Positions 5,488-28,394 of a stretch of 32,000 bases of DNA are shown piece by piece. Source of the stretch: Candidatus Iainarchaeum sp. (lineage in GTDB: Archaea; Iainarchaeota; Iainarchaeia; Iainarchaeales; GCA-2688035); the NCBI GenBank assembly GCA_028713935.1, contig JAQTNI010000009.1:3406-35405 (forward strand), written 5' to 3'. The number at the start of each line of letters is the position of its first letter. The stretch's first letter is position 1. Under the pieces are notes generated by a model. The model saw nothing but the letters and a program-made list of their open reading frames with translations, ran no database searches and was not told where the DNA came from. A program made the translations under genes and the position numbers.

Positions 5488-5623
5488 ACAAAACAACTGC
5501 TTCAAATAAAATAAAAGCTTAATTGTAATGCTTTCCAACCCAAACAAAAAACAAATAATTTTTTTTCGGCAATTGCCGTTAGCCCTTCTTCTTTTAAAAC
5601 CAGAAACAAGGCAAATTTTTTCC

Positions 5624-7038: not shown

Positions 7039-7144
7039 TTCAATTTCCTTTTTTTGGGGTTTAACCCCTTTTCTTTTTTTTTTAATTTTGTTTTAGCTGT
7101 CAGGCTGCTGGTTTTTGAGAATTAGTTGTTTGGCTTTTGCATTG
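7039..7144. repeat. repeat copy R1 (left arm shared with R2, right arm shared with R3)
   Basis: nt 7073-7117 are identical over 45 nt to 8688-8732. nt 7039-7055 match 8666-8682. nt 7113-7127 (TTTTGAGAATTAGTT) are identical to 9286-9300, with weaker similarity continuing to about 7144. Confidence 0.8.
7056..7083 (+). terminator. short GC hairpin (GGGGTTTAACCCC) followed by a T-tract, downstream of pilin gene 1
   Basis: The hairpin spans 7056-7068, then TTTTC plus a run of 10 T (7069-7083). Oligo-T tracts act as archaeal terminators. The element lies 18 nt after the pilin stop codon. Confidence 0.4.
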
Positions 7145-7880: not shown

Positions 7881-7886
7881 TTTTTT

Positions 7887-10377: not shown

Positions 10378-10381
10378 TTTG

Positions 10382-11257: not shown

Positions 11258-11260
11258 TTT

Positions 11261-12778
11261 TTACAGCTCCGGCTTTTTGTTTTTTTCCACAAGATTTTTT
11301 ATTTCATCAATGTCCTGGTAGCATTGCGCCATTATTTTGCCGACTTCGTTCACATTGTGAATGTCAAATTTTATCATCCAGTTCAATATTTTTGTTTTTG
11401 TTTTTAATTCCTGCTGTATTTCTCCCTGGCTCATTCCTGTGTGCAGTGACAATTCATCATAGAATCTTATGCTTTCATTGTGCGCGACAATCTGGTCATC
11501 GCTGCTTCTCCATCTGTAAATTATGTTTGGCTTTATTTCAAGTTCTTTTCCCCTTTTTTCAGGGATAAATTCCGCTGCTTCAAGCACTCTTCTTGATCCC
11601 AGTCTCCTGTTTCTGAACATTACAATGTTTAAGTGCACTGAATCAAGCATTGAAACTGGGATTGAAACAGGCGGGTTTACAAGCCTTGTGATTGTTTCAT
11701 CGGCTGTGTTTGCATGGATTGTGGTGTAAACACTGTGCCCTGTGTGCATTGCTTCAAACATTACTTCTGCTTCTCTCTGCCTTCTGACTTCTCCAACAAT
11801 CACCCTGTCAGGCCTCATTCTCAATGAATTCACAAGCAAATCAAGCATTGTTATTCCGCCTTTTCCTTCAGGATTCGGCTCTCTTGTTGTCAATGGAACC
11901 CAGTGCAAATAATCGGGAAGCATGAGTTCCCTAGTATCTTCAATTGAAAGCACTCTGTGGTTTGGCTGTATGAAGGGCATGCAGACATTCAAAAAGCTTG
12001 TTTTTCCCGATGCTGTTCCCCCGCTGATAATGATGTTTAATTCGTATTCCATTGCTTCCCATATCAGTGCCATTAGTTCTGCGCTGACTGTTTTTGTTTT
12101 TATAAAATCAGTTACTGTCCATGGGTCTCTTCTGAAGCGCCTTATTGTGACAGTGTTTCCCTTGCTTGAAATTGGAAAAAGAGTTGCGTTTGCCCTGTCG
12201 CCTGTTATGAGATGGGCATCAAGCAATGGCGATAAGATTGTTATTTGTTTTCCAACGCGCCTTGCGATTATGTTTGCATAGTTTTCTATGTCTGCCTCTG
12301 TTTCTATGCGGACATTTGTTTTGAGCCAGCCGTATTTTTTGTGGTAAACCCATACTGGTTCCTGGCTCCTGTTTATGACTATTTCCTCAAGGTTTCCGTC
12401 TGACAAAAGAAATTCTATTCTTCCAAGGCCCAGCATTTCATGCATTAATATTCCAACAAGCGCTTTTTTTGTTTCTTCTGTTGCGGTTGGCAGTTCGGAA
12501 TCAAGCATTTTTTGGGCTTTTTCAACGAATTTGCCGCGGATTTTTTCCACTGCATCCATGTCAAGCTGGCCTGTTCTTGCAGCTGTTTCCGCTACAAGGC
12601 TTTTTTTCAGGTTTGTGAGCAGTGCGCTTGTTCCGGCGCCATAGCTTGGAAAATTCAGGTAATACATGTTTACAAATTCTTTCGGGTCATGGATAATGTT
12701 GGTTTCCACTTTCAGGTTGTCTGTTTCCACTGTGTAAGACTCAATTACCTGGTATTTTCCGTCCATTTCTGCCTGCAT
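11261..12778 (-). CDS. type IV pilus/secretion ATPase of the GspE/VirB11 (ArlI/EpdL/TadA-like) family
   Basis: 505-aa ORF. Walker A IIISGGTASGKTSFLN, Asp box VLSIEDTRELMLP, Walker B/His box DRVIVGEVRRQREAEVMFEAMHTGHSVYTTIHA. Confidence 0.9.
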   Translation of the reverse strand: MQAEMDGKYQVIESYTVETDNLKVETNIIHDPKEFVNMYYLNFPSYGAGTSALLTNLKKSLVAETAARTGQLDMDAVEKIRGKFVEKAQKMLDSELPTATEETKKALVGILMHEMLGLGRIEFLLSDGNLEEIVINRSQEPVWVYHKKYGWLKTNVRIETEADIENYANIIARRVGKQITILSPLLDAHLITGDRANATLFPISSKGNTVTIRRFRRDPWTVTDFIKTKTVSAELMALIWEAMEYELNIIISGGTASGKTSFLNVCMPFIQPNHRVLSIEDTRELMLPDYLHWVPLTTREPNPEGKGGITMLDLLVNSLRMRPDRVIVGEVRRQREAEVMFEAMHTGHSVYTTIHANTADETITRLVNPPVSIPVSMLDSVHLNIVMFRNRRLGSRRVLEAAEFIPEKRGKELEIKPNIIYRWRSSDDQIVAHNESIRFYDELSLHTGMSQGEIQQELKTKTKILNWMIKFDIHNVNEVGKIMAQCYQDIDEIKNLVEKNKKPEL

Positions 12779-12865
12779 AAAAATCTTTTTTTTTCCATTG
12801 ATTTTTTTTAATTTGCCATATTATTAACGGGTTTTGTGGTTATTAAGTTTGCGGATTTTTGGTTT

Positions 12866-15328
12866 TCATTTTCCCAAACTTTTTTCTTTTTTGATTTTTT
12901 TTTCTTTCTTGGGTTTTGAAGGCTTTACATAATCCGCGCTTTCAATTATTGTGTCCCCGAATGCGGGGTACTCTACTTTTATGAGGTGCTGGTCTTCAAG
13001 AATGTTTAAGAGTTCTTCAAGCCGTTTTTTTTCAATTTTGGTTTCTTTCCAGAGTTCCCCTGTCCTTATTTTTCCTTTTTCCCGGATTATCTGCAAAGTA
13101 AGGTCCATGTCTGTTTCAATCCTGAATTTCATTATTTCCTTTTCATTTGTCTTTAATTTTTCTTTTTCCTTGTTTTCAAGAGTGGTGGGAAAAGTCGGGA
13201 TTTCAGCTTCTGACCAGCCGACTTCGCCGGGCTCAATAATCACTCTGCGGGGCTCTTCAGAAGTTTTTTTGAAAAACCTTGTAATGGGCAAAGCCCTTAT
13301 GTGCAATTCTTTTTTTGGCCTTTGCATTCCTTCCACTTTTGCGCTTATTCTCCCCATTTCTTCAAGTTCTTCGCTGCGCGAAGCCCAGCCCTCTTCCCGG
13401 CTTGTCTTTTCTGTTTCTTCATTTCCTGCATCAGCATCAAGAGGTTTTTCGGCTTCAATGTCACCCGGCTTTTCAATTTCAATGGGCTCCTCAATTTTTG
13501 CCTCGTAATTTTTCTGCACCTGCTCTTCTTTTTGAATTATTGTTTCATGCAGTGCCTCATTGACCTGGACATTTGTTGTTTGCTGGCTTTCTTTTTTCTG
13601 TGCTCTCCTGAAAATTCCCCCGAAAAAGCCTTTTTTTGCCTGTTGTGCAGGAACAGTTGTTTTTGCTGTTTGCACTTCAATTTCTTCCTGAGGCAATGCT
13701 GTTTGCTCTTCTGTTATCCCTGAAATTTTGCTGTAATTTGGCGCAGGCGCCTGCACCGCAATTATTTTTTCTTTCGGGGTTTCCGCGCTTTTTTGCATTG
13801 CAGGCAACTGGCCTGTTGCAGTTGTTCCTGTTTGTGTTGCCGTGCTTGTTGTTTGTGGCTGTGTTTCAGGGCTTGTTTCCTGCATTGCTGTTGCCTGCCC
13901 AGGCAAGGCTTTTTCTTCTTCTTTTTGTTTTGTTAGCCAGGGAAACTGGAATCCTTTTTTTTCTATTTCCTGTTCTGCCTGCCTCTGCAATTCGTTCATT
14001 TTTGCGAGTTTTTCAAGGCTTGCAAGCAATTGGCTGCTGTCCAATGGCTTTATTTCCTGCACAATTTTTTTTTCCGGCATTTTGTAATTGTTTAATAATT
14101 CCACAATGTAATTTTCTATTTCCATTATTTTTTCGTCGCTAACCCTGCCTGAAAGCTTTTGCTCTATTGTTTTTTCAAGTTCTTTGCTAAGCCGTTTTTC
14201 CCTGCCTTTGGGGGCTGCTTTTGTTTTTTCAAGGATTTTCTTTTTTTCTTCAAGCTCATAAAGCTTTGCCTGGTAATCCATTACTTTTTCCTGAAAATCT
14301 TGTAGAGGGATTCTGCGCTTGTAAAAATCTATTTCCAGGCGTTTCTGCATTCTTTTCATCTGGTCTATCTGCTGGTCAGTGCTGAGCATTTCCTCGTGGC
14401 TTTCTATGACAATTTTTGGCTTTGGCGATGCCCTTGCAAGGCTTGCTGCCGCAAGAGTAATTGCCTTTGCGGCTTCAGCCAGATCAGTCATTGTTTTCAG
14501 TTCCAATGGCGATTTTGTCTCTTCCCTGAAAATAATCTGGCCTTTTGCCTGTTCAGTTGCAATTTGCTCCATTTCAAGGTTTTCTTTTGCGGAAGAAACC
14601 TTGCTGAGAAGCGCTATCTGCATTTTGTAGTCCCGAATTTTTTTTGTTAGCTGGCTTTTTTTCCTGGTTTGTTCCTCTGAAAGTTTTTTTTCTTCCTGCG
14701 CATGCTTTAACTGGTTCAGTTCCCTCTGGTATCTTGCCTGCCATGATTCAAGCCTGGTTATTTTTGACCTTATTTTTTTCAGGTTTTCTTTTAATGCTCC
14801 GGGCTCTTCCCTTATTTTTTCTGAAACCCCTTCAAGCCTTTCCATTTCAGGCGAAATTGCTTCAGGCTCTCCGCTTATTGCCTGTTCAGCAAACTCTTCA
14901 AATCCTTTTTTTGTTTCAGATGCAGGAATTTCCGGCATTGTTATTTTTTCCAGTTTTTCTTCCCTTGCCTTTCCGCCAAAAAGCCTCCTGAAAATCCTTG
15001 AAAAAAAGCCCTGTTTTTTTCCTGATGTTTTTGTTTCTTCCGCAAACATCCGTTTCCTCGCTGCTTCTTCTATCTGGGATTTTATTATTTCCCTTAAAAT
15101 CGGCTTGTCACCCGAAATCTGGGTTTCAATAATTCTGCCTATTTCGCTTTTCAACTGGTCAAAAGTATGTGCCTGTGCAACAAGAAGCATTCTTTTTGCC
15201 TCATCATCCTTTGCGCCAAGGCCCTGCAAGGTTTTAATTATTTTGTCTTCTGTTTCTCCTTCTCTCAGCATTTCGCCTATTATTTTGATTATTCCTTTTT
15301 CACTTTTTTCTTCAGGCATAAAAATCAT
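12866..15328 (-). CDS. Glu/Lys-rich coiled-coil protein with two MinD-MTS-like amphipathic motifs and a C-terminal winged-helix-like domain; function unknown
   Basis: 820-aa ORF directly upstream of the ATPase gene with no TM segment. Motifs are GKKQGFFSRIFRRLFGGKA (nt 14966-15022) and AKKGFFGGIFRRAQ (nt 13598-13639). The C-terminal LQIIREKGKIRTGELWKETKIEKKRLEELLNILEDQHLIKVEYPAFG lies at nt 12959-13132. Confidence 0.7.
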   Translation of the reverse strand: MIFMPEEKSEKGIIKIIGEMLREGETEDKIIKTLQGLGAKDDEAKRMLLVAQAHTFDQLKSEIGRIIETQISGDKPILREIIKSQIEEAARKRMFAEETKTSGKKQGFFSRIFRRLFGGKAREEKLEKITMPEIPASETKKGFEEFAEQAISGEPEAISPEMERLEGVSEKIREEPGALKENLKKIRSKITRLESWQARYQRELNQLKHAQEEKKLSEEQTRKKSQLTKKIRDYKMQIALLSKVSSAKENLEMEQIATEQAKGQIIFREETKSPLELKTMTDLAEAAKAITLAAASLARASPKPKIVIESHEEMLSTDQQIDQMKRMQKRLEIDFYKRRIPLQDFQEKVMDYQAKLYELEEKKKILEKTKAAPKGREKRLSKELEKTIEQKLSGRVSDEKIMEIENYIVELLNNYKMPEKKIVQEIKPLDSSQLLASLEKLAKMNELQRQAEQEIEKKGFQFPWLTKQKEEEKALPGQATAMQETSPETQPQTTSTATQTGTTATGQLPAMQKSAETPKEKIIAVQAPAPNYSKISGITEEQTALPQEEIEVQTAKTTVPAQQAKKGFFGGIFRRAQKKESQQTTNVQVNEALHETIIQKEEQVQKNYEAKIEEPIEIEKPGDIEAEKPLDADAGNEETEKTSREEGWASRSEELEEMGRISAKVEGMQRPKKELHIRALPITRFFKKTSEEPRRVIIEPGEVGWSEAEIPTFPTTLENKEKEKLKTNEKEIMKFRIETDMDLTLQIIREKGKIRTGELWKETKIEKKRLEELLNILEDQHLIKVEYPAFGDTIIESADYVKPSKPKKEKKIKKEKSLGK

Positions 15329-15346: not shown

Positions 15347-16498
15347 TCAGCTTGTTCCAATTTTAAGGTTTGTAAAGCCGGATTTTCCGACATTAAAATC
15401 AAAAGCATTGAATTTAACAAGAGCAATCGGCTCTTTGAAAATAATTTTTGTTGATGCAATTACTGGTGCGTGCTGGTCTGCTTTGTTGTCCATTCCAATA
15501 ATTACTTTCGGGTCGAAATCTTCTAATTTTGACTCATTTAGGATAAAAATATCTGTATAGCCTTCGCCCGCAAGTTTTAGGCTGAAATAATTGTCTGCTG
15601 TGCCAACATGATTTGAGCCTTCTGTAGAACAGCAGGAAAGGTCGCAGGGAGGCTGTGGGTCGCAATCCGCAATGGGGATCTGGCTATTGATATTAACATA
15701 AGGATTGGCATTTGATTGGAGAAATTCGTTTAACAGTGGGTTTTTTGAGCCATCCCCGAGGTCGCCATAATATTCCCATTTTTGTATCTGAATTGGCATG
15801 CCTGCATTTGGGCCTGTTGTTGGCTTTGGAATTGTCACATTAAAATCAATCATTCTTATTTTGCTTATGTCAAAGCTGCATCCATCATCTTCTCCATCAG
15901 TAAAAATTTGCAGCAAGGTTCCGTCAGGCTGCGGATTATAGGATATGCATTCGTCCAAAATCAGGTATGTGAACTTGTCGTTTCCTCCCCAATCGGAATT
16001 TTTAGCAGCCCTTGCAGTTATGTTTAAGTCTCCGTTTATGTTTTTGTCTGAAACAAAAATCGAGTAAAGGTTCAGCGCATCATACATCGCTTTGAGCTGT
16101 TCATCATCGCTGCTTATCGGGGTTTCCTGTGAAATTTCTATCCATCCGCATCCGCTTGGCGAAGCATTTGGGCCTGTGCAGGGGCAAATGTCATGGTCTT
16201 CACTTTCGGGGCAGCCATTTTCTTGGACACAGTCATCTTTGCAGGCCATGTTTCCCGCATCATATTCAAACGGAGTTAGAATCCTGCTCTGCAGCCTTCC
16301 TGCATAGCCTGTTTTTACTGCCAATGTTTCGTTGTAAATGTTTGCAAAGCCAGTGTTTACTGCGTCAAAAGCGGTTTCTTCAACAGTGCCTTGTTTTTGC
16401 CCGATTGTTGTTTGTTTTACCCCGCTTCCTGCAAGAATTATTGCCAGTCCCATTAGGAATATTACAAATGCAAGGAAAAAGCCTTTTTTGCTGTTCAT
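15347..16498 (-). CDS. membrane-anchored or pilin-like Cys-rich extracellular protein, function unknown
   Basis: 383-aa ORF. MNSKKG/FFLAFVIFLMGLAIILAG is a possible class III signal or a signal anchor. A Cys-rich segment follows (ACKDDCVQENGCPESEDHDICPCTGPNASPSGCGW). The ATG abuts the stop of the upstream gene (TAAATG at 16498/16499). Confidence 0.6.
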   Translation of the reverse strand: MNSKKGFFLAFVIFLMGLAIILAGSGVKQTTIGQKQGTVEETAFDAVNTGFANIYNETLAVKTGYAGRLQSRILTPFEYDAGNMACKDDCVQENGCPESEDHDICPCTGPNASPSGCGWIEISQETPISSDDEQLKAMYDALNLYSIFVSDKNINGDLNITARAAKNSDWGGNDKFTYLILDECISYNPQPDGTLLQIFTDGEDDGCSFDISKIRMIDFNVTIPKPTTGPNAGMPIQIQKWEYYGDLGDGSKNPLLNEFLQSNANPYVNINSQIPIADCDPQPPCDLSCCSTEGSNHVGTADNYFSLKLAGEGYTDIFILNESKLEDFDPKVIIGMDNKADQHAPVIASTKIIFKEPIALVKFNAFDFNVGKSGFTNLKIGTS

Positions 16499-19400
16499 TT
16501 ATTTCACCCAGGCAGCGTATTGCACTTTGAAGTAATAAACTTTTGATTCGCCCAGGCAGTATATTTGTGCTGTGTTGTGCAAGCTGCAGTCTTTTGCACC
16601 GCTTATCACTCCCCAGATATAACCTTCGCCTAACAATTTTGTGTTGCTAGTTGAAACAGTGTAATTTGGCGCTGCAGGCTGGTATTGTAAATTTTTATCT
16701 GCAGTTATGGAAAAAGTGCCGCAGTTTCCTGTGCAACCTGACGGTGGCAGGTCTGTGTCAATGTGGGTTGTCATTGTGTTATTTTTATAAAATCCAATGT
16801 AAAGGTCTTTTGGCGCTGTGAATCCAACACAGTTTAATTCAAAATTTAGTCTTGTGTCTTGAGGCCCATATATTGTTCCGCAGTCTGTTCCTATGCATGT
16901 GAATTTTATCTGGCAGTCCCTGTAGCCAAATGGCACTGTTTGCCTGCATGTTGCCAGGTCGTATGGGCAGTTTGGCATGCAACTACTGTCGCATTCAGTC
17001 TCTGTTCCCCAAATGTAATTATTCTGGTCTTTTATTATTGTTGTCTGCGGAGGCGGAAATTTTATTGTATCGCTTTGGCAGTATTCTCCTGTGCAGGGAA
17101 TTCTTTCCTTGAATGTCTGGCTTTTGTATTCTCCTGCAATGTCAACATCAAAAGTTATGCTTTGGTTTGTCCACTCGGGGTTTGTTGTGCAGGCAGGAGT
17201 GTCATCTGCTTTTAGGCATTTGTAAGCGTCTGTTCCAATGGTTTCGTATTTTTCGCATTTGCATATTTCTGTTCCCGGCTCGGCTTCTATGGTTATTTTT
17301 GTATTTGGAATTGCTGTTCCAATTTCTTCTGCAATCAATGCGTATATTTCCGTTAAAGTGCTTTGGTCTGCCGCAAAATAATATCTTCCGCACTGCTGGA
17401 CTTTGTTAATTTCCAGGCTTGGCCAGTTTGAAAAACATTCGGGATATTTTGGGTTTGAACCGTTCATTCTGGCTTCTTCGCAGGCTCCTGTTGCATCATA
17501 GCTTGTGCAGGGGTCTTTTGCAATGTCCCTTAAATCCTCTGCGGCAGCATCTCCGCCAAAACCAATTGCATAAACAGTAATTCCTGTGCTTCTTGCATTA
17601 TCCGCTTGCAGTATTGCATATTGCACTGCCTCCGCGGGTGTGCAAGCTGTTCCTCCTTCACATTTGTTTGCCTGTCCGTCTGTAAGCAGCACAATGAATT
17701 TTTTGTTTTGTGTATTAAATGCCGCGCTTGCAATTCCTATTGCGTCTCCAATGTTTGTTTCTCCGCTCGGATTCATTGTTTTGGCAGGGTCTGGGCCAAA
17801 ACTGTCAGTGCCGTTTAAAGTTCCTATCAAATTTGTTTTTCCAGCTGCATTAAGAAGAATCGGGCCTTGGTTAAGCACTGCCGTAGTTGAATAGCTCGCT
17901 ATTCCCATTTTGTCTTCTGATTTCCATTGTGCGTTGTTTATGAATGTTATTGCTGCCGAAAGCGCAGCGTCAATTCTTTTTATAGACCAATCAATGTTGT
18001 AACTTGTAAGATATTCAGCCCAGCCTATTACACTGTAATCTCCTGCTGGGATTGGCTGGCCTGTTGCAGTGTTGTCATAAATTATGCTCTGGCTTGTGCA
18101 TGTGTCCATTGAATCCGCGTTTGTGCAATTTACTCCGTAACCGTTATTGTCTAACCAGCCTTTTCTTGGGCGGGGATAATACCATTTCAAATTTGAGCTT
18201 CCAGATATTGGATTTTCAAATCCAATTGCTCCGCCTGCACAGACAGCGCCAGAGTCGCCTATAAGTGATGTGGAAATTTTGAGCCCGCGGAATTTATAAT
18301 TGTCTGTGATTGTTGTTGTGTCCAGGTATGTTGCTGAACTTTCTATGCTTGGCAGGCTTGCAACAGCATTGCTTGGGTTTGTCGGGCAGTTTGTTTCTCC
18401 GGGAATCATTGGTGTTGTTGTGCTTGTGCAGGTTGCACCGCTGCAGGTCCCCCCGCTTATTGAATCTGTCCTGCCAAAATTTCCAAAAACAAGGCCAAAA
18501 GAATTGCTTACAGTAGTTTGAACATTGAATGTTACTGCAGAATCAGACCAGGCCCATAATTCATAATCCCCTGTTGTTTCAAATGGTCCCGATAAGCTGC
18601 TTCCCCAATTTATTGAGCAGGGAGTTCCCTGTGCGCAAGTGCTGCTGGTCCAATCAACTGCCCCGCTGCTATTTTTGTGCGTAACATAAAATCTTGGCCA
18701 TCTGCAGTCTCCGCTGTAATTCTGGTAATTGCTGATTTGCCAGCCAATTCCGTAAATTTGATTATATTTTACAAGATCATAAGGAAAAGTGTATGAACTA
18801 ATTTTTTGCCAGTTCCCGTAATTGCTGCAGTCAGTTGGATTTTCTCCTTCCTGATATGTTCCTTCGTGTGTTCCTGTTCCGCTTGCACTTAAACCTGAAG
18901 CAGTAATTGAAGCCGGATTTTGCCGTAAATAAACATAATATCCTACTGGTGAATCGCTCCAGGCGTTTACTCCGTAGTTGTAGCCATAGCTTGGCCCCAG
19001 GCTTAATACTGTGTTTCCGCTTATGGCCTCGTAATAGAGGTAGCCGACGTTGTTTACTATTGCGCCGTTTGGTTGTGTTACCCAGATTCCTTGTGTTCCA
19101 TCTCCTGCATAATTATTTTTGCATGCCCCGTTGTATGTTGTTCCTGATGAAATGAAATAAAGAGTGTCATTGCTTAAAATTTTGTTCAAGGTGCCTTGGC
19201 TTGAAAAATCATATGAGCCTGAGCTTTGCTTGTTTGTATACGCGGTTGATGCTTTGCTTAAAGGGCAATTCGTGGTTGTTTGTGCCGGCGTGTCTGGATT
19301 TAAAACACAGCTAGGCCCGCCTCCGTTTAGCCAATTGTACAATGCTCCTGTGTTATTGTTGCCTGAGGAATCCGAAGCAATATTTCCGCTTGATTCGTTA

Positions 19401-20950
19401 AATGCCCAGTATCCAACCAAATTTGCATTGTTATTGAAAACCCCGTTATAATGCTGGTTAATTTCTACTGCAGTAAGCACCCTGTGGTAAACTCTTACTT
19501 CGTCTATTATGCCGTTAAATTCGTTTGTGATTGGCGGGACTCCTGGCCAGCCTGTTAAAGAATCACTGCCTGTTTTCCAAAATCCTGCATAATTTTTGGC
19601 TGTTCTTGTGATTGTGTCTCTTGCCACTGGGTTTGGGTTTCCGTCAACATAAAGTTTCATTCCTACTGTGCTGCTTAGTGTTGCTACAACATGGTGCCAT
19701 TGCTGATTATTGTATCCTACCATGCTGCTTAGATTTGCAACAATATTTTGCTGTTGTTGGCTATTGTCTCCTGCCAATTGAGGAACTACCATTGAGGGGC
19801 TTGTTATTACTTTTTTTGTTGTGCCGGAAATAATTCCAAAGGAAAGAGTGCCATTGTCGCGCATATAAATTAGCCTGTCTGTATTTGTGCTTGTTCCTAC
19901 CTGGCTGTTTCCAAAGCCTATCAGCCTTCCGCCATTTATGTTATCCGAAGTTGTTTTGAACCATAATTCTATGGAAAAATTTGTGGGATTTGTAAAGCCA
20001 TTATATGTTGTTACAAAAGTGTTTGCTGAACCAAACCTTAGTGCGTGGCTTCCTCTTTTTCCCGGTGCAACCCATTTTTCCGTTGTGTTTGTGCAGTATC
20101 CATAATTGATTTGCCCGATTGGGCTTGCAGTTGCTATTGGCGAGTCCATGTCAAATTTTGACATTGTAAGGCTTCTGTCTATTATTGTCATTATTGCTAT
20201 TGGGTCTCTTATTCCGCTTTTTTCGCTTATTGTGACTGTTGCCACTTCATTGGCATCTACTCCGTCTTCAGAATCATAACAGTACATTTTTGATGTTGGC
20301 ACAAAAAGTTCCGGCGTCTCAGTGCCTGGAGTGTTTGTTGTACTTACTTTTGTTGTTATTGTTGTTGCTGTTTCGTCCAATTGCAGCGTTGTGTTTTTTT
20401 TGTTTTCAGAGGCTGTTTCTATTATGCAGTTGTTTGCAATGTTTCCTTTCATATAGGGCTGCCTTTTCATGAATGCCTGGCTTCCAGTGTAAATTTCCTG
20501 GTTTGAGGGTATTTGCTGGCCTCCTGTTGCTTCTGAAACTTTGTTGAAGCATTCGTTGAATTGTGTTGTGCCAGGAGGGGGATTTCTGCAGCTTGCCAGG
20601 TCTGTGTTTTTTTGTTCAAATTGTTCTATTTGTATGTTTAAATCCATGTTTTCCGGCAATATTTTTTTCATTTCAAAGTAAAGCAAATCTGCGTCAAAAT
20701 TTGTAAGCGGGTTTCCTGTGTTGTCTACAAATATTTGCCCTATTATGCCGTTGTTGTCCATTGCAGTCACTGCATCGTCAAGCATTTGTTTTGCGTTTGC
20801 CTGCCGGGTTATGCTTGCAGTTGGCGCTTCCGTCATTATTCCCAATCCAAGATAGGATATCAGGGCAATGAGAATTGCTATTGCAAACAATGTGTCCAAT
20901 GAAATTACAAATCCTTTTTCACGGGTTTTTTCAGCAATCATTTTTTCCAA
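16499..20950 (-). CDS. giant pilin-anchored adhesin: class III signal-like N-terminus, split vWA domain with a nested LamG/ConA-like lectin domain, Cys-rich C-terminus
   Basis: 1483-aa ORF. The first codon is TTG at 20950, and the ATG at 20941 (MIAEKTREKG/FVISLDTLFAIAILIAL) is the more likely start. MIDAS-like IIDRSLTMS lies at nt 20159-20200. LamG elements (FSIELWFK, QWHHVVATL, KLYVDG, IIDEVRVYHRVL) lie at nt 19436-20053. The vWA remainder (GETNIGDAIG, KFIVLLTDGQAN, ITVYAIGFGGD) lies at nt 17318-17983. Confidence 0.85.
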   Translation of the reverse strand: MEKMIAEKTREKGFVISLDTLFAIAILIALISYLGLGIMTEAPTASITRQANAKQMLDDAVTAMDNNGIIGQIFVDNTGNPLTNFDADLLYFEMKKILPENMDLNIQIEQFEQKNTDLASCRNPPPGTTQFNECFNKVSEATGGQQIPSNQEIYTGSQAFMKRQPYMKGNIANNCIIETASENKKNTTLQLDETATTITTKVSTTNTPGTETPELFVPTSKMYCYDSEDGVDANEVATVTISEKSGIRDPIAIMTIIDRSLTMSKFDMDSPIATASPIGQINYGYCTNTTEKWVAPGKRGSHALRFGSANTFVTTYNGFTNPTNFSIELWFKTTSDNINGGRLIGFGNSQVGTSTNTDRLIYMRDNGTLSFGIISGTTKKVITSPSMVVPQLAGDNSQQQQNIVANLSSMVGYNNQQWHHVVATLSSTVGMKLYVDGNPNPVARDTITRTAKNYAGFWKTGSDSLTGWPGVPPITNEFNGIIDEVRVYHRVLTAVEINQHYNGVFNNNANLVGYWAFNESSGNIASDSSGNNNTGALYNWLNGGGPSCVLNPDTPAQTTTNCPLSKASTAYTNKQSSGSYDFSSQGTLNKILSNDTLYFISSGTTYNGACKNNYAGDGTQGIWVTQPNGAIVNNVGYLYYEAISGNTVLSLGPSYGYNYGVNAWSDSPVGYYVYLRQNPASITASGLSASGTGTHEGTYQEGENPTDCSNYGNWQKISSYTFPYDLVKYNQIYGIGWQISNYQNYSGDCRWPRFYVTHKNSSGAVDWTSSTCAQGTPCSINWGSSLSGPFETTGDYELWAWSDSAVTFNVQTTVSNSFGLVFGNFGRTDSISGGTCSGATCTSTTTPMIPGETNCPTNPSNAVASLPSIESSATYLDTTTITDNYKFRGLKISTSLIGDSGAVCAGGAIGFENPISGSSNLKWYYPRPRKGWLDNNGYGVNCTNADSMDTCTSQSIIYDNTATGQPIPAGDYSVIGWAEYLTSYNIDWSIKRIDAALSAAITFINNAQWKSEDKMGIASYSTTAVLNQGPILLNAAGKTNLIGTLNGTDSFGPDPAKTMNPSGETNIGDAIGIASAAFNTQNKKFIVLLTDGQANKCEGGTACTPAEAVQYAILQADNARSTGITVYAIGFGGDAAAEDLRDIAKDPCTSYDATGACEEARMNGSNPKYPECFSNWPSLEINKVQQCGRYYFAADQSTLTEIYALIAEEIGTAIPNTKITIEAEPGTEICKCEKYETIGTDAYKCLKADDTPACTTNPEWTNQSITFDVDIAGEYKSQTFKERIPCTGEYCQSDTIKFPPPQTTIIKDQNNYIWGTETECDSSCMPNCPYDLATCRQTVPFGYRDCQIKFTCIGTDCGTIYGPQDTRLNFELNCVGFTAPKDLYIGFYKNNTMTTHIDTDLPPSGCTGNCGTFSITADKNLQYQPAAPNYTVSTSNTKLLGEGYIWGVISGAKDCSLHNTAQIYCLGESKVYYFKVQYAAWVK

Positions 20951-21040
20951 TCCGGCTTTAATTTATTTTATTATAATTAATATTTTTTTAATATAAAATT
21001 GTATTGCCAATGTTTTTTTGGGCAGTTTTAGAAACCAAAG

Positions 21041-21670
21041 TCAATTGTATGCCCAGAGTTCAATTGTTGCTGTTCCGCTGTAGCCAGCCCCTTCATAATA
21101 AACTATTCTTTTTTGCGCAATTACTTTTTTTGCGTATGCGCTCGGGGTTACGCCTGTTTCCATTTCTGTTTCCGAACCGCGTATTTTTTCCTTAATCAAT
21201 TTTTTTTCCGATGCATTATTAGGGCTAAAATAATAAATCTGGAAATAATAATTCATGTCTCCCAGGAGCAATAATTTTGCCTTTGTTTTTTCATAATCGC
21301 CAAAGCAGTTTGCCTCGCAATCAGGCCAGATTTTTCCATATTCCACAAATTTTGCAAGCTTGTTTGAGTCTATTGCCCTGTCTCTTTTTGCAAGGCCAAT
21401 GAACAGCACATTGTCAATGCTTGGGGCAAATTGCCAGTCTGTTCCGCCGTTTATTTTTTCGCCTGGGCTTTTTACAATAAAATTCAGTGTTCTTGCGCTC
21501 GTTGCAGCCATTTCATAGTCTTTCAGCTGGTTTTCTGCAAAAGAATTCTGGTTTTCCCAGATTGTAACCGCAATTGCAAGCACTGCGAGAAAAATTGTTG
21601 TTCCAATGACTATGTCAAGGGAAACAGCCTGTGCTTTTTTGTCACTGCCCAGTGAATACAACAAAACCAC
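21041..21670 (-). CDS. pilin-like protein (class III signal peptide, Gln +1), minor pilin candidate
   Basis: 209-aa ORF. SDKKA/QAVSLDIVIGTTIFLAVLAIAVTIW. It overlaps the upstream pilin-like gene by 29 nt, so the exact start is uncertain. Confidence 0.6.
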   Translation of the reverse strand: MVLLYSLGSDKKAQAVSLDIVIGTTIFLAVLAIAVTIWENQNSFAENQLKDYEMAATSARTLNFIVKSPGEKINGGTDWQFAPSIDNVLFIGLAKRDRAIDSNKLAKFVEYGKIWPDCEANCFGDYEKTKAKLLLLGDMNYYFQIYYFSPNNASEKKLIKEKIRGSETEMETGVTPSAYAKKVIAQKRIVYYEGAGYSGTATIELWAYN

Positions 21671-22052
21671 CTTTTTTTGACAATTTATAGTTTCTAACTG
21701 TTAAAGAAATTCCACTTGCGTTTGTGTCCCCATGATCCTGATCAATCTGTGCGTTTCCAAAATAATGGCACGAATAAAGCCCCACTGTTATCTGCCCAGG
21801 ATTTCCTATGATTTTTTGGATTGCGACATTTTCTCTTGCAACAAAAATATTTTTTTCCGCTATTCCCTGGCTTGAATAAATTTCTGAAATCGCATCTGCT
21901 ATTTTGTTGCATTCAATGCCGTCTGAATTTATGCCTGTTATAAAATTGGTTTGAACTGTTTGCTGCGCATAAGCAGTTACTCCAATCAAGAGCAATGTCA
22001 TTGCAACAAGCGCAGCAATGAGGAATTCAAAAGAAACCTGGGCTTTTTTCAA
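21642..22052 (-). CDS. pilin-like protein (class III signal peptide, Gln +1), minor pilin candidate
   Basis: 136-aa ORF. MKKA/QVSFEFLIAALVAMTLLLIGVTAYA. Confidence 0.7.
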   Translation of the reverse strand: MKKAQVSFEFLIAALVAMTLLLIGVTAYAQQTVQTNFITGINSDGIECNKIADAISEIYSSQGIAEKNIFVARENVAIQKIIGNPGQITVGLYSCHYFGNAQIDQDHGDTNASGISLTVRNYKLSKKGGFVVFTGQ

Positions 22053-22061
22053 GGTTCCACC

Positions 22062-22589
22062 TTACTTTTCCAGCCGGATTAATTTCCTGTCAGTCCAGCT
22101 TACTTTAATTTTGTACCTGAAATTGTTTATCAAAATCGCAGTGTCAGTCCCGTCAGGTATTATAAGCCTTGCTTTTGTGGGATAAAGCAATTCGTTTCCA
22201 GAAATTTCAATTACTTTTACTGCGCTTGATTTTATGCAGTCATCCCCATTAGAGCACTGCTTGCCTGCGCCGCTGCAATTGCAGTTTGCTCCCTGTGCTC
22301 CATCACAGCCAATCATTTCCGCGTTTGTTTTGCAGAGGCTGTAGATGCTTATGCCTGTCACTTCGCCTGGCCAGCTTACTTCTGCAAATTGGACATTGCC
22401 CGGGCCCATTGCATAAACAAGGTTTATTGTTTGTACAAGATTGTCAAGGCTTTCGCCTGCCTGTTGTGTGCTAATGTTCTGGCTTGTTGTTGCAAGTGAA
22501 GCGCTGAACAGGACAATGACTATTACCATTGCAAAAACGCTTACCATCAGGTATTCCATTGAAGCCTGCGCGGTTTTTTCTACTTTCAT
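22062..22589 (-). CDS. pilin-like protein (class III signal peptide, Gln +1), minor pilin candidate
   Basis: 175-aa ORF. MKVEKTA/QASMEYLMVSVFAMVIVIVLFSASL, with a Cys-rich loop (CDGAQGANCNCSGAGKQCSNGDDC). Confidence 0.7.
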   Translation of the reverse strand: MKVEKTAQASMEYLMVSVFAMVIVIVLFSASLATTSQNISTQQAGESLDNLVQTINLVYAMGPGNVQFAEVSWPGEVTGISIYSLCKTNAEMIGCDGAQGANCNCSGAGKQCSNGDDCIKSSAVKVIEISGNELLYPTKARLIIPDGTDTAILINNFRYKIKVSWTDRKLIRLEK

Positions 22590-22654: not shown

Positions 22655-25600
22655 TTAGCTGCAATTGCCGCTGTTCCAGGTTTTGCCTGCAAGAACACAA
22701 ATTTTGTCTGCTGTCAAGGCTTTTTTCCAGATTGAAACATCGTCAATCAAACCAGCAAAATGACCCGGTTCATCCTGCCAGCCAAAACCAATATACGCCG
22801 CATGCAAATCGCTTGCATCAGAATAATCATGTAAAATCAGGGCAGGATTACTGGATTCGCCAGCCAGGCTTCCATCAATATAATACTTCCAGCCAACGCC
22901 GCTTTCAAAAACAAAAGCAACCTGATGCCACTCATTTTCGGCAATTGTTCCAGTGGAAGTAGGCCAAGAATTAGACTGGTTGCTTCCGTTCCGAACCATT
23001 GAAACCAAATGGCCAAAAGAATAAGAAGAAGAACTGCCGGCACTGAAATAATCAAATCCGCCTAAATGTTGGGTTACAATATTTATCTGATTCACGTAAT
23101 CCGGTTTAACCCAGGCAACAACAGTAGTAGAACTGTTCTCGCCGCCATACGTTGAAAGAGCACTCAAAGAACTGTCAAAACGAATATGGTCAGGGCCAGA
23201 AACACCACCGCGGAAAGAAAAAGCACCACTACCGTTGTGGCCTCCAGTTGCCTGACAAGTCGCTCCCACAACTGTTCCGTTACGATGATTTCCGGACTGG
23301 TCCCAGGCATTGCAATGGTCAAAACTCCAATAAGCAACCAAGTCAGGGTCGCAATCGTTTGGGCAACTGGTAAAACTTTCCCCGCCAGCATTTTCACAAA
23401 TGCCATTATTGTTGCAAGAAGGGAGTCCATAAGAATGGCTACTCCAATCTAAAGGGCCAGTATTATCAGCAACCTCTACTCCATCAGAAAAACCGTCAAA
23501 ATCAGAATCCGGATTAGTCGGGTCAGTACCGCGGGCAAACTCCTGCGAATTGATAAGGCTATCATTATCAGGGTCGCCAAGGCCATTCTGCGAAGTAATA
23601 TTCCCAAAATACTGCACTTCCCAATCATCCCGCAAACCATCCCCATCTGCATCCAAACCCTCAGTAGTAAAGGAATCGACAGAACCCCAAAGAATCTCAT
23701 TCAAAATATCGGCAGCCCGATTTGAAGAACGGATGCGGAAATTATAATCAGTATTCGGATTCAAACCAGAAAGCGTTATGCTATGAAAAGTCGTAAAAGA
23801 AGGGTCACCTATGATCCCATCTGGGCCACTAAAATAGGTAGTAGGATGTGTCTCATGATAGGGATTGTACCACCAAGAACCATTGCTTGTGTAAGCAACC
23901 TCGCTATCAGAAGGCAAATTAGTCTCCCACTGAATCGTAAAAGAAGTGCCAGTAACTGGTATTATCTGAATATTTGTCGGAGCCCTAAACCAGCCATTCT
24001 GTGCATCAACTGGCCAAGCAGTGTCAAGATTTGATGAATACGAAGCTTTCCTCTGATCATAAAGAGGCTTAAAATAACTCAGCCAAGCACCAGAACGGCT
24101 AAATTGTGCACTATTAAGATTCTGCGCCAAAACACGGAACATTTCTTTTGTGGAAATAGCAGCACGCGCACTACTAACGCGAATATTTGAGCCAATTGCC
24201 TGGGACATTCCATATCCTGAAACAAAAAATCTAAAATAAGGGTTATTAGGGCTCTCTACTTCAGCCATGGGCCCGGTTTCTCCTGTAAGCGTGTAATCAA
24301 CATACGCATCAATCATGACTGCCCTTCGGCCAGTATAAGCCAAATAAGCATCCCAGGCATCAACAGAATCATGATGATAAATAATTCCGTTATCACCAAT
24401 ATCTGTGCGGACTTGGCGAATAAAATTATAATCCTGTTGCAAATCCCCTGCATCCGCATTGTCAAAATACCAGCCATCAAAATTATTTTCTTCCTGGAAT
24501 TCTTTCATCCAAGACAAGGTTACCTGGATATCCTGCTGGTTCCACCAGTATATGGATGGCGCAGACATATAAGTAATGACTTTGAAATTGTGTGCATGGG
24601 CAAAAGAAACAAAATCCTGCAATAACTGTTTGTCAATGTCCCGGATTTTATACCCCATAATGCCAGAAGGCAAAAGCACCGGGACTTCCCCTATTTTACC
24701 GGGAGTGTTTTCATATGCAACGCTTGCCCAAAGCAAAAAAACTCCAAAACCGTCGTTAACATAATTGTCCACATTTGTCCCGGACATCAGATTAGTCAAG
24801 TCATCAGGGGTGTATAAGAAATGAACAAAAGGCTTTGAGCTTGCCCCATATAATTTTTCAAAATCAAATTTTTTTGGGGGAAAAACCATGTTTCCCATTG
24901 AACTGCCGGCTCCCAAAGAAATGCTTGTAGAATCTGTTGTTTCATTTGAAACAACTGGGTTTCCCTGCATTTTTGCATGCAAAGAACCGCCATACCCGTC
25001 TGTCCAAATTCTGTCTGTTCCTGTTCCTTTGTTCCAGGGCGCAGCAGCAACCAAATTGTTGTAGGTGTAGGCGAATGGCTCTTTGGCTTCAATAATGAAA
25101 AAAGAATCCGAATTGAAAACAAAGCGTGCTTTGTCGCTTTGCACAATTGCCTGTATTGTTGTTGCGGATTCAACAGTTAAATTTGAAATTGTGTTTTCAA
25201 AAGAGATTTCTGCAACTTTTCTGGGGGTTTCTGTGTCATTATTGGTTGCGGGGTCAATGCGGCGCCATAATTCAATTCCGTCTTGTTTTATAATGTACAA
25301 GGCGCCTGTGGTTGTAATTTCAATTTGATCTTCGTCTTGAAAAGCAGAAAAGATGCTCATGCCAAAAAACCCGTTGCCAGTGCAGTCCAGTGGGCAGTTG
25401 CTTGCTGTTTCGCCTGCCTCGCATGTTCCGTTGTTGTTGCAAACGGCTTGTCCTGTGCATTGGCAGTTTGTGCAGGTAAATCCTGCTTGGCATTGCGCTT
25501 GCCCTGTCCCGTCGCATTGTTCTGTTTGGCCTTCGCTGTTTGGGTCGGTTATAATATTGTCTCCGCAATAGGTTGTGCAGTCTGTTGGGCAAGTGGCATT

Positions 25601-26107
25601 GGTTTCTCCTGTTTCGCATGTTCCGTTTCCACAGTTGCTTGTTGTTTGGCAGTCAGTGTCGTTTAAAGGAGTGCAGGTTGCTGGGCAGCAGTTGTCTCCG
25701 TTTGTGCAGGTTGTTATGTCTGTGTAGGTGCAGGTTTGGCTTGTGCAGGTTGCTGTTTTGCAGTTTTGTGATGTGCAGTCTGCTTCTGTTGTACAACTTG
25801 TTCCTGTGTTTGTTTTGTTGAGGCAGTCTGGTGTTATTAGTATTGCTGTTGTTCCTGTGCATTTGTTTGCTGCGAATGACCATTCGCAGTCTGAGTATTG
25901 GCAGTTTCCTGTTCCATCCGGGTCGTTTCCTGCTTGGCCACATTGTGTGGATGAGAATTTTGCGCAGATTGTGTTCAGGACTTCTATTTGTGTGCTGTTG
26001 ATATTTGTGCCGCTGGCATTGAAGAGTATTACAATTGCCAGTGCTGCCACTATTACTGCCCCGCCAATTATCAGCAGGTATTCCAAACTGCTTTGCGCGT
26101 TGTTCAA
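22655..26107 (-). CDS. giant pilin-anchored multidomain surface protein: Cys-rich modules, TIM-barrel glycoside-hydrolase-like region, Fn3, Ca-binding TSP3-like repeats, C-terminal LamG
   Basis: 1150-aa ORF with a TTG start at 26107. MNNA/QSSLEYLLIIGGAVIVAALAIVILF is the class III signal. Cys/Thr-rich region at nt 25379-25966. Hydrolase-like region (FVSFAHAHNFKVITYM, NNFDGWYFDNADAG, GIIYHHDS) at about nt 24008-24850. Fn3-like (FTIQWETN...TDYNFRIRS) at nt 23663-23995. DADGDGLRDDWE / DPDNDS / DSDFDGFSDG at nt 23453-23656. LamG (LVAYWSFD...EWHQVAFVF...YYIDG...GLIDDVSIWKKAL) at nt 22703-23347. Confidence 0.85.
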   Translation of the reverse strand: MNNAQSSLEYLLIIGGAVIVAALAIVILFNASGTNINSTQIEVLNTICAKFSSTQCGQAGNDPDGTGNCQYSDCEWSFAANKCTGTTAILITPDCLNKTNTGTSCTTEADCTSQNCKTATCTSQTCTYTDITTCTNGDNCCPATCTPLNDTDCQTTSNCGNGTCETGETNATCPTDCTTYCGDNIITDPNSEGQTEQCDGTGQAQCQAGFTCTNCQCTGQAVCNNNGTCEAGETASNCPLDCTGNGFFGMSIFSAFQDEDQIEITTTGALYIIKQDGIELWRRIDPATNNDTETPRKVAEISFENTISNLTVESATTIQAIVQSDKARFVFNSDSFFIIEAKEPFAYTYNNLVAAAPWNKGTGTDRIWTDGYGGSLHAKMQGNPVVSNETTDSTSISLGAGSSMGNMVFPPKKFDFEKLYGASSKPFVHFLYTPDDLTNLMSGTNVDNYVNDGFGVFLLWASVAYENTPGKIGEVPVLLPSGIMGYKIRDIDKQLLQDFVSFAHAHNFKVITYMSAPSIYWWNQQDIQVTLSWMKEFQEENNFDGWYFDNADAGDLQQDYNFIRQVRTDIGDNGIIYHHDSVDAWDAYLAYTGRRAVMIDAYVDYTLTGETGPMAEVESPNNPYFRFFVSGYGMSQAIGSNIRVSSARAAISTKEMFRVLAQNLNSAQFSRSGAWLSYFKPLYDQRKASYSSNLDTAWPVDAQNGWFRAPTNIQIIPVTGTSFTIQWETNLPSDSEVAYTSNGSWWYNPYHETHPTTYFSGPDGIIGDPSFTTFHSITLSGLNPNTDYNFRIRSSNRAADILNEILWGSVDSFTTEGLDADGDGLRDDWEVQYFGNITSQNGLGDPDNDSLINSQEFARGTDPTNPDSDFDGFSDGVEVADNTGPLDWSSHSYGLPSCNNNGICENAGGESFTSCPNDCDPDLVAYWSFDHCNAWDQSGNHRNGTVVGATCQATGGHNGSGAFSFRGGVSGPDHIRFDSSLSALSTYGGENSSTTVVAWVKPDYVNQINIVTQHLGGFDYFSAGSSSSYSFGHLVSMVRNGSNQSNSWPTSTGTIAENEWHQVAFVFESGVGWKYYIDGSLAGESSNPALILHDYSDASDLHAAYIGFGWQDEPGHFAGLIDDVSIWKKALTADKICVLAGKTWNSGNCS

Positions 26108-28328: not shown

Positions 28329-28394
28329 TTTGCTGAATCTGATTTTCCTGCGAAAAAGCATAATTTTAAAGCCAGTTTTTTGCCAATTATTCTA

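Follow-up and report, generated by a model that had tools for sequence, protein, structure and literature searches.

Can one domain of the von Willebrand factor A (vWA) type be interrupted by some 720 residues of other domains and still be complete, and what would a protein built in this way do in an archaeal pilus? The question is raised by an open reading frame (ORF) at 16499..20950, minus strand, in a 32,000-nucleotide stretch of DNA (the window) from Candidatus Iainarchaeum sp. (GenBank assembly GCA_028713935.1, contig JAQTNI010000009.1, positions 3,406 to 35,405). DPANN archaea are very small and, to our knowledge, every one in cultivation lives in attachment to other cells; little is known of how they recognise partners or surfaces. 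An earlier note, made from the letters alone, had read the ORF product as a pilin-anchored tip adhesin with a laminin G-like (LamG) lectin domain nested in a split vWA domain. Here we report evidence that aa 251-268 hold strand beta1 and the MIDAS (metal-ion-dependent adhesion site) loop of the vWA fold, and that its remainder lies at aa ~989-1212. We consider it likely that the protein is a giant modular minor-pilin-like component of an archaeal type IV pilus (Tad/Epd-like 'system 1') of a DPANN host (Iainarchaeota/Diapherotrites) and that it carries a split vWA domain; its location at the pilus tip and its role in adhesion we infer by analogy.

The ORF is a single unbroken frame of 1483 amino acids (aa) with a TTG start; NCBI places the start at the ATG of codon 4 (M4), which gives 1480 aa. 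A record identical to the ORF product (P0001), from a 35-kb contig, is titled 'VWA domain-containing protein [Candidatus ainarchaeum sp.]'. All eight motifs quoted in the earlier note lie at exactly the aa and nucleotide (nt) positions given there (Table 1). In the native protein, Pfam VWA_2 matches with profile positions 17-107 at aa 989-1093 and Pfam VWA with profile positions 62-155 at aa 1039-1148. These matches miss strand beta1 and the DxSxS loop, VWA-family matches starting locally at profile position 17-22, and in six further family members every VWA match starts at profile position 16-24. In sequence the domain is not contiguous: full profile coverage returns only upon in silico removal of aa 269-988.

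This was quantified in a splice test, in which aa 243-268 were joined to aa 989-1215 and compared with the native context (aa 963-1215) and with two controls, a shuffled version of the fragment and an unrelated beta-fragment. The native context scored 34.0 bits against VWA_2 (profile 17-107) and 41.1 bits against VWA (profile 22-155), the spliced sequence 48.4 bits (profile 1-107) and 44.7 bits (profile 2-155). Splicing adds about 14 bits to the VWA_2 score, with the match reaching profile position 1. Neither the shuffled fragment (VWA_2 35.2, VWA 40.9 bits) nor the unrelated beta-fragment (33.7 and 41.0 bits) extended the match. Among relatives, P0104 rose from 76.0 bits (VWA, profile 17-173) to 98.0 bits (profile 1-173) and P0002 gained 5-8 bits. 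A family profile built from 24 insert-deleted sequences matched the structure 4rck at E 7.5e-27, continuously over positions 10-214 including beta1 and DxSxS, and the Streptococcus sanguinis pilin PilB (7b7p) at E 6.5e-14 over positions 9-134. The full-length protein had no phmmer match among PDB sequences, and the single spliced chimera reached only E 0.17, to PilB. The splice test offers a simple way to detect discontinuous domains. Both profile signals that the earlier note had proposed to look for, Laminin_G_3 and a discontinuous VWA, are present, the VWA match lacking beta1 and recovering it on splicing.

Structure prediction leads to the same arrangement. The AlphaFold2 (AF2) model of the native protein (aa 30-1220, 38-sequence alignment) has a mean predicted local distance difference test score (pLDDT) of 69 and a predicted template modelling score (pTM) of 0.50 overall, with 85-96 pLDDT in the vWA part. 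Its contiguous C-terminal part contains five sheet strands only (beta2-beta6, at aa 1014-1020, 1024-1032, 1083-1090, 1124-1131 and 1190-1193), and the strand at aa 251-258 forms an isolated island of pLDDT ~94 amid regions below 50. Foldseek did not bridge the 720-aa gap of the native model, which is therefore uninformative on beta1. For an insert-deleted model, the spliced window sequence was aligned to full-length relatives, MAFFT placing the fragment on the invariant columns. This model is a single domain with pLDDT 88.8 and pTM 0.88, in which strand 9-16 (IAIMTIID, pLDDT ~96) is followed by loop, alpha1, beta2 and beta3 in canonical order; a Rossmann-like fold with a six-stranded sheet (beta1-beta6) and flanking helices is predicted. 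Foldseek aligned 247-257 of its 253 columns to VWA crystal structures. From the native to the insert-deleted model the target-normalised TM-score (TMt) rose from 0.58-0.71 to 0.68-0.79 overall (TEM8 0.62 to 0.78, Rpn10 0.65 to 0.78, BatB 0.58 to 0.68). The best structural match of both models is PilB, at E 1.7e-7 and 1.9e-12, respectively. The placement of beta1 and the MIDAS loop at aa 251-264 in the earlier note is thereby backed by conservation, splice test, profile matches and AF2/Foldseek, and that of the remaining elements at aa ~990-1211 by Pfam VWA and VWA_2 and by the AF2 pLDDT of 85-96. The vWA sequence including aa 243-268 is predicted to fold as one domain, and these lines of evidence support aa 251-268 as the missing beta1/MIDAS piece.

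The split is a family trait. A word-indexed search with the whole protein returned mostly LamG proteins and one true relative, P0002 (1127 aa). BLASTP aligned window aa 10-287 with P0002 19-297, ending in IAIMTIIDRSLTMSKFDM (window) and ISAMLVTDKSTSMNQYDL (P0002), and window aa 658-1483 with P0002 385-1127, alpha1 reading (IK)RIDAALSAAITFINNA in the window and (IQ)RIDAAKKASKTFLDNA in P0002. Exhaustive phmmer with P0002 yielded 121 representatives at E<1e-10, of which 39 reached E<1e-30. Three block hidden Markov models (HMMs) were used, covering the N-block (to the MIDAS loop), the V-block (from alpha1) and the C-terminal block. The N-block HMM matches all family members; identity over this block is 43% to P0002 and 68% to the fragment P0071. 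Both vWA pieces could be placed in 53 representatives, with the hydrophobic strand and D-x-S-G-S-M in 52/53 and alpha1 (QRIDAAK..AK.FIDN) following 105-1557 residues later. P0166 (671 aa), the sole relative without a gap, runs from N-block straight into V-block, and DQSRP replaces DxSGS. With its MIDAS loop degenerate, P0166 was rejected as an intact ancestral form without insert; insert and metal site may be lost jointly. Two gammaproteobacterial candidates (L008, L009) have ordinary contiguous VWA domains and were rejected as family members. Named members come from Diapherotrites, Micrarchaeota or 'archaeon'; their annotation goes no further than VWA domain-containing protein, or in one case Mg-chelatase subunit ChlD. 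Standard annotation sees a truncated VWA (or ChlD) and misses the MIDAS and the pilin nature. Apart from these results, the C-terminus of P0071 (JGI contig, 2047 nt) reads EIGRASCRERV, a translated Illumina adapter (AGATCGGAAGAGCGTCGTGTAGGGAAAGAGTG), the contig end being adapter read-through.

The window protein carries the MIDAS signature DxSxS...T...D as D258-R-S260-L-T262, T1065 and D1091, a metal site predicted from these residues. The 38-sequence family alignment, with a mean column identity of 13%, shows no variation at D258 and S260, and >=90% of its sequences keep M263 and an S at position 262 (T in the window); T1065, D1091 and G1092 are invariant in the family V-block. Such conservation of the MIDAS loop is far beyond chance. 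One could still suppose that DxSxT at aa 258-262 is a fortuitous look-alike and that the vWA domain is incomplete and MIDAS-less, its first strand lying elsewhere, for instance at aa 982-990. The strand, which in the native model lies immediately before alpha1, is the sole alternative one can conceive of; it is, however, part of the terminal hairpin of the last beta-module, and the domain folds confidently in prediction without aa 963-988 and with aa 243-268. Moreover, with the native upstream context no VWA match begins ahead of profile position 17-22, the control fragments add nothing, and the motif is invariant despite the low overall identity of the family. We regard a chance resemblance as very improbable.

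The insert between the two vWA pieces measures about 715-725 aa in the window. As the earlier note had stated, it holds a full Laminin_G_3/ConA-like domain (aa 313-498; E 6e-16, 59.4 bits against a Pfam gathering cutoff of 27.6 bits, profile 7-151 of 151), for which a lectin role is suggested by sequence. AF2 models this domain poorly because the alignment is shallow there. The proposed start of a second LamG domain stood in part. The motif LVGYWAFNESSGNIASDSSGNNNTG is real and leads a LamG unit in P0085 and P0087, where it lies ~13 aa past one LamG and ~50 aa ahead of the next; no recognisable LamG follows it in the window, aa 499-700 giving no LamG signal even at E<=1 and no Pfam match. The second unit has therefore degenerated or been lost. 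BLASTP of the insert against itself detected no repeats; it took a family module HMM to reveal them, made from the ~150 aa that immediately precede alpha1 in 17 members. Two copies score in the window (Table 1), of which aa 704-810 aligns to P0002 modules and aa 830-986 is modelled by AF2 at pLDDT 75-90. At aa ~560-700 AF2 predicts strands (pLDDT 70-90), and aa 536-675 is not significant against the module HMM; this stretch is probably what is left of either a LamG or a first beta-module, and a third, degenerate unit probably extends over aa ~545-675. The order along the chain is beta1/MIDAS, linker, LamG, LamG remnant with degenerate module, module, module, alpha1.

Across the family the distance between the vWA pieces varies from 105 to 1557 aa, in size classes of ~105-130, ~280-290, ~385-525, ~560-670, 715 (window), ~780-930, ~1000-1120 and 1557 aa; the comparison of orthologues suggested in the earlier note thus reveals a variable insertion. 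P0002 has a gap of ~390 aa with three module copies and no LamG, P0075 has seven to eight copies, and P0071 reads PIAIMTIMDKSGSMSKLDM after the N-block and continues straight into a Cys-containing beta-module, with no LamG after the MIDAS. Longer inserts in six further members contain 1-3 Laminin_G_3 domains (Pfam). A single metagenome-assembled genome (MAG) holds two paralogous adhesins with unlike inserts (L002, L003). Judged by sequence, the insert is a variable array of family-specific beta-module and LamG domains. We tentatively suggest, as a possibility that falls well short of likely, that DPANN pilus adhesins have, in the loop between DxSxS and alpha1, a dedicated hot spot for cassette insertion. 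Gain, loss and shuffling of beta-module and lectin arrays (105 to >1500 aa) would there set apart even close relatives and paralogues of one genome. If true, the hot spot would set variable glycan-binding modules beside an invariant metal site, a two-part surface choosing the host cell or substrate.

As the source is a MAG, the long insert might be suspected to be an assembly or sequencing artefact fusing unrelated genes. The frame is uninterrupted and even in composition (GC content 0.385-0.443 along the ORF), the identical protein is on record from the 35-kb contig, and dozens of independent assemblies contain homologous inserts flanked by this same pair of vWA pieces. Because GC content is even and the insert is homologous to inserts of relatives, there is no sign of a chimeric assembly, and we give an artefact next to no probability.

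The earlier note held the arrangement to be unusual for an archaeal pilin-like protein, which does not hold: the vWA domain is split in all ~52 DPANN family representatives, many of them with 1-3 LamG domains, and a split has already been described for CpaL/TadG (PMC12607857). In the published AlphaFold3 model of CpaL from Caulobacter crescentus, one vWA-like domain (residues 148-203 and 384-626) is split by two tandem beta-rich domains, its MIDAS consisting of D160, T162, S164, T470 and D515 (PMC12607857). Compared with this published description, the window protein likewise has its vWA in two sequence segments with a beta-rich insert downstream of DxSxS. CpaL is encoded with, or acts alongside, a Tad-type machine of one ATPase and two TadB/C-like platform proteins; its predicted place is at the tip together with small minor pilins. 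The insert of CpaL, however, is ~180 aa long (two beta-domains) as against 725 aa in the window and 105-1557 aa in the family, no LamG is described there, and the window host, an archaeon, lacks both outer membrane and secretin. To judge by its published boundaries, CpaL may have the break slightly further into the fold. The window protein has no PF13400 (TadE/G-like) match at E<=1, and NCBIfam gives only a sub-threshold TafC match in the LamG region (E 0.022, 13.9 bits against a cutoff of 410 bits). By analogy with CpaL, compared by description only, the protein may thus be said to 'work like' TadG/CpaL rather than to be a sequence-based member of TadG. The same break directly behind DxSxS occurs elsewhere: in a TadG-like protein of a planctomycete (L011), DxSxS lies at aa ~177 and alpha1 only at aa ~409, with ~225 aa between, and a Micrarchaeota class-III-signal protein of different N-terminal architecture (L016) breaks after DxSxS with ~105 aa to alpha1. 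The principle of a vWA split after DxSxS is already known. Undescribed in the literature searched appear to be the DPANN family itself, the universal split in it, the more than 10-fold range of insert length and the recurrent nesting of LamG inside vWA. A large minor pilin with a split vWA, common to both, connects archaeal pili with the Tad pili of bacteria, and this bears on the proposed archaeal ancestry of Tad systems.

Modular pilins of other bacteria offer further parallels. PilB of S. sanguinis combines a pilin with a vWA whose MIDAS is flanked by two arms and binds host proteins (PMC8179133); PilC of the same species combines a pilin with a lectin (PMC9934059), and PF13385 is among the commonest modules grafted onto pilins (PMC9934059, PMC8179133). 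With PilB (PDB 7B7P/7BA2) the window protein shares a class-III-signal pilin module fused to a MIDAS vWA, which in PilB mediates adhesion. In PilB the vWA is essentially contiguous and the arms are small, whereas in the window protein one arm has grown to a multi-domain array; sequence identity over the fold is 16% only, and PilB is bacterial, from a type IVa pilus (T4aP)-like system of a monoderm. PilC resembles it in presenting a ConA-like/LamG lectin module on a type IV pilin and differs in that the LamG of the window vWA protein is nested inside the vWA, not appended to the pilin C-terminus. The window vWA protein and a neighbouring 1150-aa protein that ends in LamG parallel the S. sanguinis pair of PilB (vWA) and PilC (lectin). 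The tip adhesins of sortase pili (RrgA, SpaC, PitA, GBS104) and of the type V pilus (Mfa5) also carry a tip vWA with MIDAS and inserted arms round the metal site, and all of them are among the Foldseek or HMM matches (6m48, 7w6b, 6tnj); they differ in an unrelated assembly chemistry, short inserts and the lack of a class III signal.

Is the protein indeed a pilin? Its N-terminus has the form of a class III signal, a short charged leader followed by a hydrophobic helix (MEKMIAEKTREKG / FVISLDTLFAIAILIALISYLGLGI), and this form is family-wide (consensus KGFAIS.DAL.A..L). The residues 'SLD' at +4 to +6 are the same as in the neighbour pil209 (KKAQAVSLD), and six consecutive minus-strand genes carry class-III-type N-termini. 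The signal proposed in the earlier note is therefore present in form and conserved in the family; it is not recognised by the PF04021 model, which matches the neighbouring 1150-aa protein weakly. Behind it, the N-block is modelled as helices and strands at aa ~50-160 (pLDDT 60-83), and a Pfam search of aa 37-250 gave no match. The operon of the adhesin also encodes other pilins, a T2SSE ATPase and a TadC/FlaJ-type platform. Loci of Iainarchaeum and other archaeal MAGs repeat the order pilins, adhesin, p383, p820, ATPase, TadC, TadC; it is conserved in >=5 loci from other MAGs, with synteny in L001, L003, L005, L006 and L007. An ATPase with two platform genes characterises the archaeal type IV filament 'system 1' of methanococci, Thermococcales and DPANN (bioRxiv 10.64898/2026.04.22.720090; PMC4858521), and the window operon, as read from its predicted genes, matches this system.

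The hydrophobic N-terminus could instead be an uncleaved signal anchor, the protein being a membrane-tethered surface or S-layer-associated adhesin merely co-encoded with pilus genes. That no Pfam Class_IIIsignal match and, among the window ORFs that were scanned, no prepilin peptidase gene was found would fit, as would the size of 1483 aa, very large for a pilus subunit; TadG, as cited in PMC4858521, was once proposed as a membrane anchor of pili. The K-G/hydrophobic leader is, however, common to five neighbouring pilin-like genes, 'SLD' recurs in pil209, the operon position is conserved, the best structural neighbour PilB is a true pilin, and large modular pilins are documented (PMC8179133). 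We consider a mere signal anchor improbable and prefer the pilin-like subunit.

Sequence and models show the course of the chain in this subunit. After a conserved head of ~210 aa it forms vWA beta1 and the D258-x-S260-x-T262 loop, leaves the vWA domain for ~720 residues comprising one LamG, the remnant of a second and two to three family beta-modules, and re-enters at helix alpha1 (aa ~990), completing the fold, which supplies MIDAS residues T1065 and D1091. As the insert exits the fold directly after the DxSxS loop, it must, from topology, emerge on the MIDAS face, as had been proposed in the earlier note. Because the excursion starts and ends beside the metal site, it would constitute an oversized 'arm' on the ligand-binding face. 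By analogy with PilB, PilC, CpaL/TadG and the Myxococcus Tip complexes, the N-terminal helix may insert the protein at the distal pilus end together with the neighbouring small pilins. The metal site would then bind an acidic ligand residue of the target, completing its coordination, and LamG and beta-modules might bind glycans or shape access to the metal site, the insert being the fast-evolving, specificity-setting part. In Myxococcus, Kil/Tad pili carry exchangeable Tip complexes with a large TadG-type pilin as backbone, and differing tips confer differing target recognition (PMC12075869). Of the 'nested-domain tip adhesin' of the earlier note, the nesting of LamG in a split vWA finds support in sequence and models; the tip adhesin is suggested by analogy with PilB, CpaL and TadG. 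The family is a concrete, conserved candidate for partner recognition in DPANN archaea: a pilus-borne vWA/MIDAS adhesin with a fast-changing stack of lectin and beta-modules on its ligand face.

PilY1/PilC of T4aP, large proteins associated with the tip, have a vWA-like domain near the N-terminus that is implicated in adhesion and mechanosensing; they are not pilins, dock by beta-strand complementation and end in a C-terminal beta-propeller. Identity of the window protein with PilY1/PilC was rejected, as there is no Pfam match to the beta-propeller (PF05567) and a pilin-like N-terminus is present. The same split architecture could nevertheless have as its main job the priming of assembly or mechanosensing, as in Caulobacter CpaL or Pseudomonas PilY1, with vWA/MIDAS engaging parts of the pilus or envelope or changing shape under tension. 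CpaL, whose architecture is the closest one described, acts on the number of pili and on surface sensing, not simply on adhesion (PMC12607857), and the window gene is a strictly conserved core member of the operon beside p383 and the ATPase, which fits a structural or assembly role. Against this stand the hypervariable insert with its repeated recruitment of lectin domains, a pattern typical of outward ligand recognition and not of an internal interface that is conserved, and the fact that archaea have no secretin or outer membrane to gate. As the main function we think it rather unlikely, about one chance in several; the two roles are not mutually exclusive, and priming or mechanosensing is a serious alternative or additional function next to adhesion.

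Several points weigh against a split-vWA pilus adhesin. The native model is moderate overall, with LamG and part of the N-block below pLDDT 50, and the pairing of aa 251-258 with beta2 and beta4 is deduced from the course of pLDDT, from the number of strands and from the spliced construct. The window MIDAS reads DRSLT, not DxSGS, a conservative change. The protein has no Pfam Class_IIIsignal (PF04021) or TadE/G-like match, and the scan of window ORFs yielded no gene for a prepilin peptidase (peptidase A24). That the protein enters the pilus, sits at its tip, binds metal and has a ligand is inferred.

Table 1. Features of the adhesin and of its pilus operon in the window
Feature	Position (nt)	Strand	Residues (aa)	Basis
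Charged leader MEKMIAEKTREKG (aa 1-13) and hydrophobic helix FVISLDTLFAIAILIALISYLGLGI (aa 14-37), class-III-type signal	20840..20950	-	1-37	sequence
Conserved N-terminal globular block, presumed pilin-like head and stalk, 4 conserved Cys	20201..20839	-	38-250	
vWA strand beta1 and MIDAS loop, IAIMTIIDRSLTMSKFDM; MIDAS D258, S260, T262	20147..20200	-	251-268	
Motif IAIMTIIDRSLTMS	20159-20200	-	251-264	quoted motif, position confirmed
Laminin_G_3 / ConA-like lectin domain, within vWA insert	19457..20014	-	313-498	Pfam
Leader motif of second LamG unit	19346..19420	-	511-535	motif
Motif LVGYWAFNESSGNIASDSSGNNNTG		-	511-535	quoted motif, position confirmed
Beta-rich region, ending YGVNAWSD	18926..19345	-	536-675	motif scan, AF2 strands
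Family-specific beta-module copy (CSNYGNW ... YELWAWSD)	18521..18841	-	704-810	module HMM, E 5e-7
Last family-specific beta-module copy (... GDYSVIGWAEYLTSYNIDW), directly before helix alpha1	17993..18463	-	830-986	module HMM, E 3.5e-31 (model built from this family position)
vWA remainder, alpha1 to last helix; MIDAS T1065 and D1091	17315..17986	-	989-1212	Pfam VWA, VWA_2
Motif RIDAALSAAITFINNA		-	992-1007	quoted motif, position confirmed
Motif KMGIASYSTTA		-	1014-1024	quoted motif, position confirmed
Motif SGETNIGDAIG		-	1062-1072	quoted motif, position confirmed
Motif KFIVLLTDGQAN		-	1084-1095	quoted motif, position confirmed
Motif ITVYAIGFGGD		-	1124-1134	quoted motif, position confirmed
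Motif YYFAADQSTLTEIYALIAEEI		-	1190-1210	quoted motif, position confirmed
C-terminal Cys-rich domain, 18 Cys, ending ...YYFKVQYAAWVK	16502..17314	-	1213-1483	
Three small class-III-signal pilin-like genes (209, 136, 175 aa), directly upstream of adhesin	21041..22589	-		
Second giant class-III-signal protein, 1150 aa; fn3/purple-acid-phosphatase-N-like domain, TSP3, C-terminal Laminin_G_3	22655..26107	-		Pfam
p383, Cys-rich, class-III-type N-terminus (SKKGFFLAFVIFLMG)	15347..16498	-		
Assembly machinery block (p820, ATPase, two platform genes)	9361..15328	-		Pfam, synteny
p820, 820 aa, highly charged, low-complexity; C-terminal TFIIE-alpha-like winged helix-turn-helix, E 2e-4	12866..15328	-		
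T2SSE-family ATPase	11261-12778	-		Pfam
Two T2SSF/TadC-like platform genes	10382-11257, 9361-10377	-		Pfam
N-terminal motifs: 1150-aa protein NNAQSSLEY; pil175 TAQASMEY; pil136 KKAQVSFEF				
N-terminal motifs: pil209 KKAQAVSLD; adhesin EKGFVISLD; p383 SKKGFFLAF				

Downstream of its split domain the protein ends in the Cys-rich region of ~270 aa described in the earlier note, which holds 18 of the protein's 42 Cys; a further Cys-rich loop lies between beta5 and beta6 of the vWA remainder. The C-terminal domain has no Pfam match, and according to its block HMM ('C-block') it is kept in about half of the family. Directly upstream of the adhesin start, the 90-nt spacer 20951-21040 is extremely AT-rich (…TTTATATTAAAAAAATATTAATTATAATAAAATAAATT…) and may be an internal archaeal promoter for separate expression of the adhesin. 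The order of the three small pilin-like genes is kept in L003 and L005, and the 1150-aa protein encoded beyond them is a candidate lectin-type modular pilin.

On the other side, p383 lies directly downstream of the adhesin gene in L001, L003, L004, L005 and L006 and is a candidate obligate partner of the adhesin. It has no Pfam match; descent as a paralogue of the adhesin C-terminal domain was considered and rejected, as there is no similarity. In L005, a second, partial adhesin-like gene with a p383 homologue lies upstream of the pilin genes (1553-3735), a tandem adhesin/p383 duplication. The C-terminus of p820 is kept at the same operon position in L003, L005 and L007, and the ATPases of these syntenic loci are 65-67% identical. 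In L007, from an Iainarchaeum MAG, the ATPase homologue matches in two pieces (12974-13723 and 15722-16489; aa 12-260 and 250-505) on the same strand, ~2 kb apart, which could be due to an intein or other inserted element.

Further genes surround the operon. Two adjacent KaiC-family ATPase genes and two GT4 glycosyltransferases (66-1423 and 1501-3898, both minus strand) lie ~8 kb downstream of the pilus machinery; KaiC-like ATPases have been noted as regulators linked to type IV pili in archaea (PMC4858521). An AbiEii-type nucleotidyltransferase toxin (7122-7880) with an unannotated upstream partner (7887-8597) lies within 7122-8597, minus strand, and a PIN-domain gene (5528-6046, plus strand) overlaps a HicB/UPF0150-like gene (5266-5625, minus strand); the AbiEii and PIN/HicB genes are predicted toxin-antitoxin modules beside the pilus operon. 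Finally, the product of 28380-29066 (plus strand), 228 aa long and apparently unrelated to the pilus locus, has a domain of transglutaminase-like / CEP76 peptidase-like type (E 1.8e-7).

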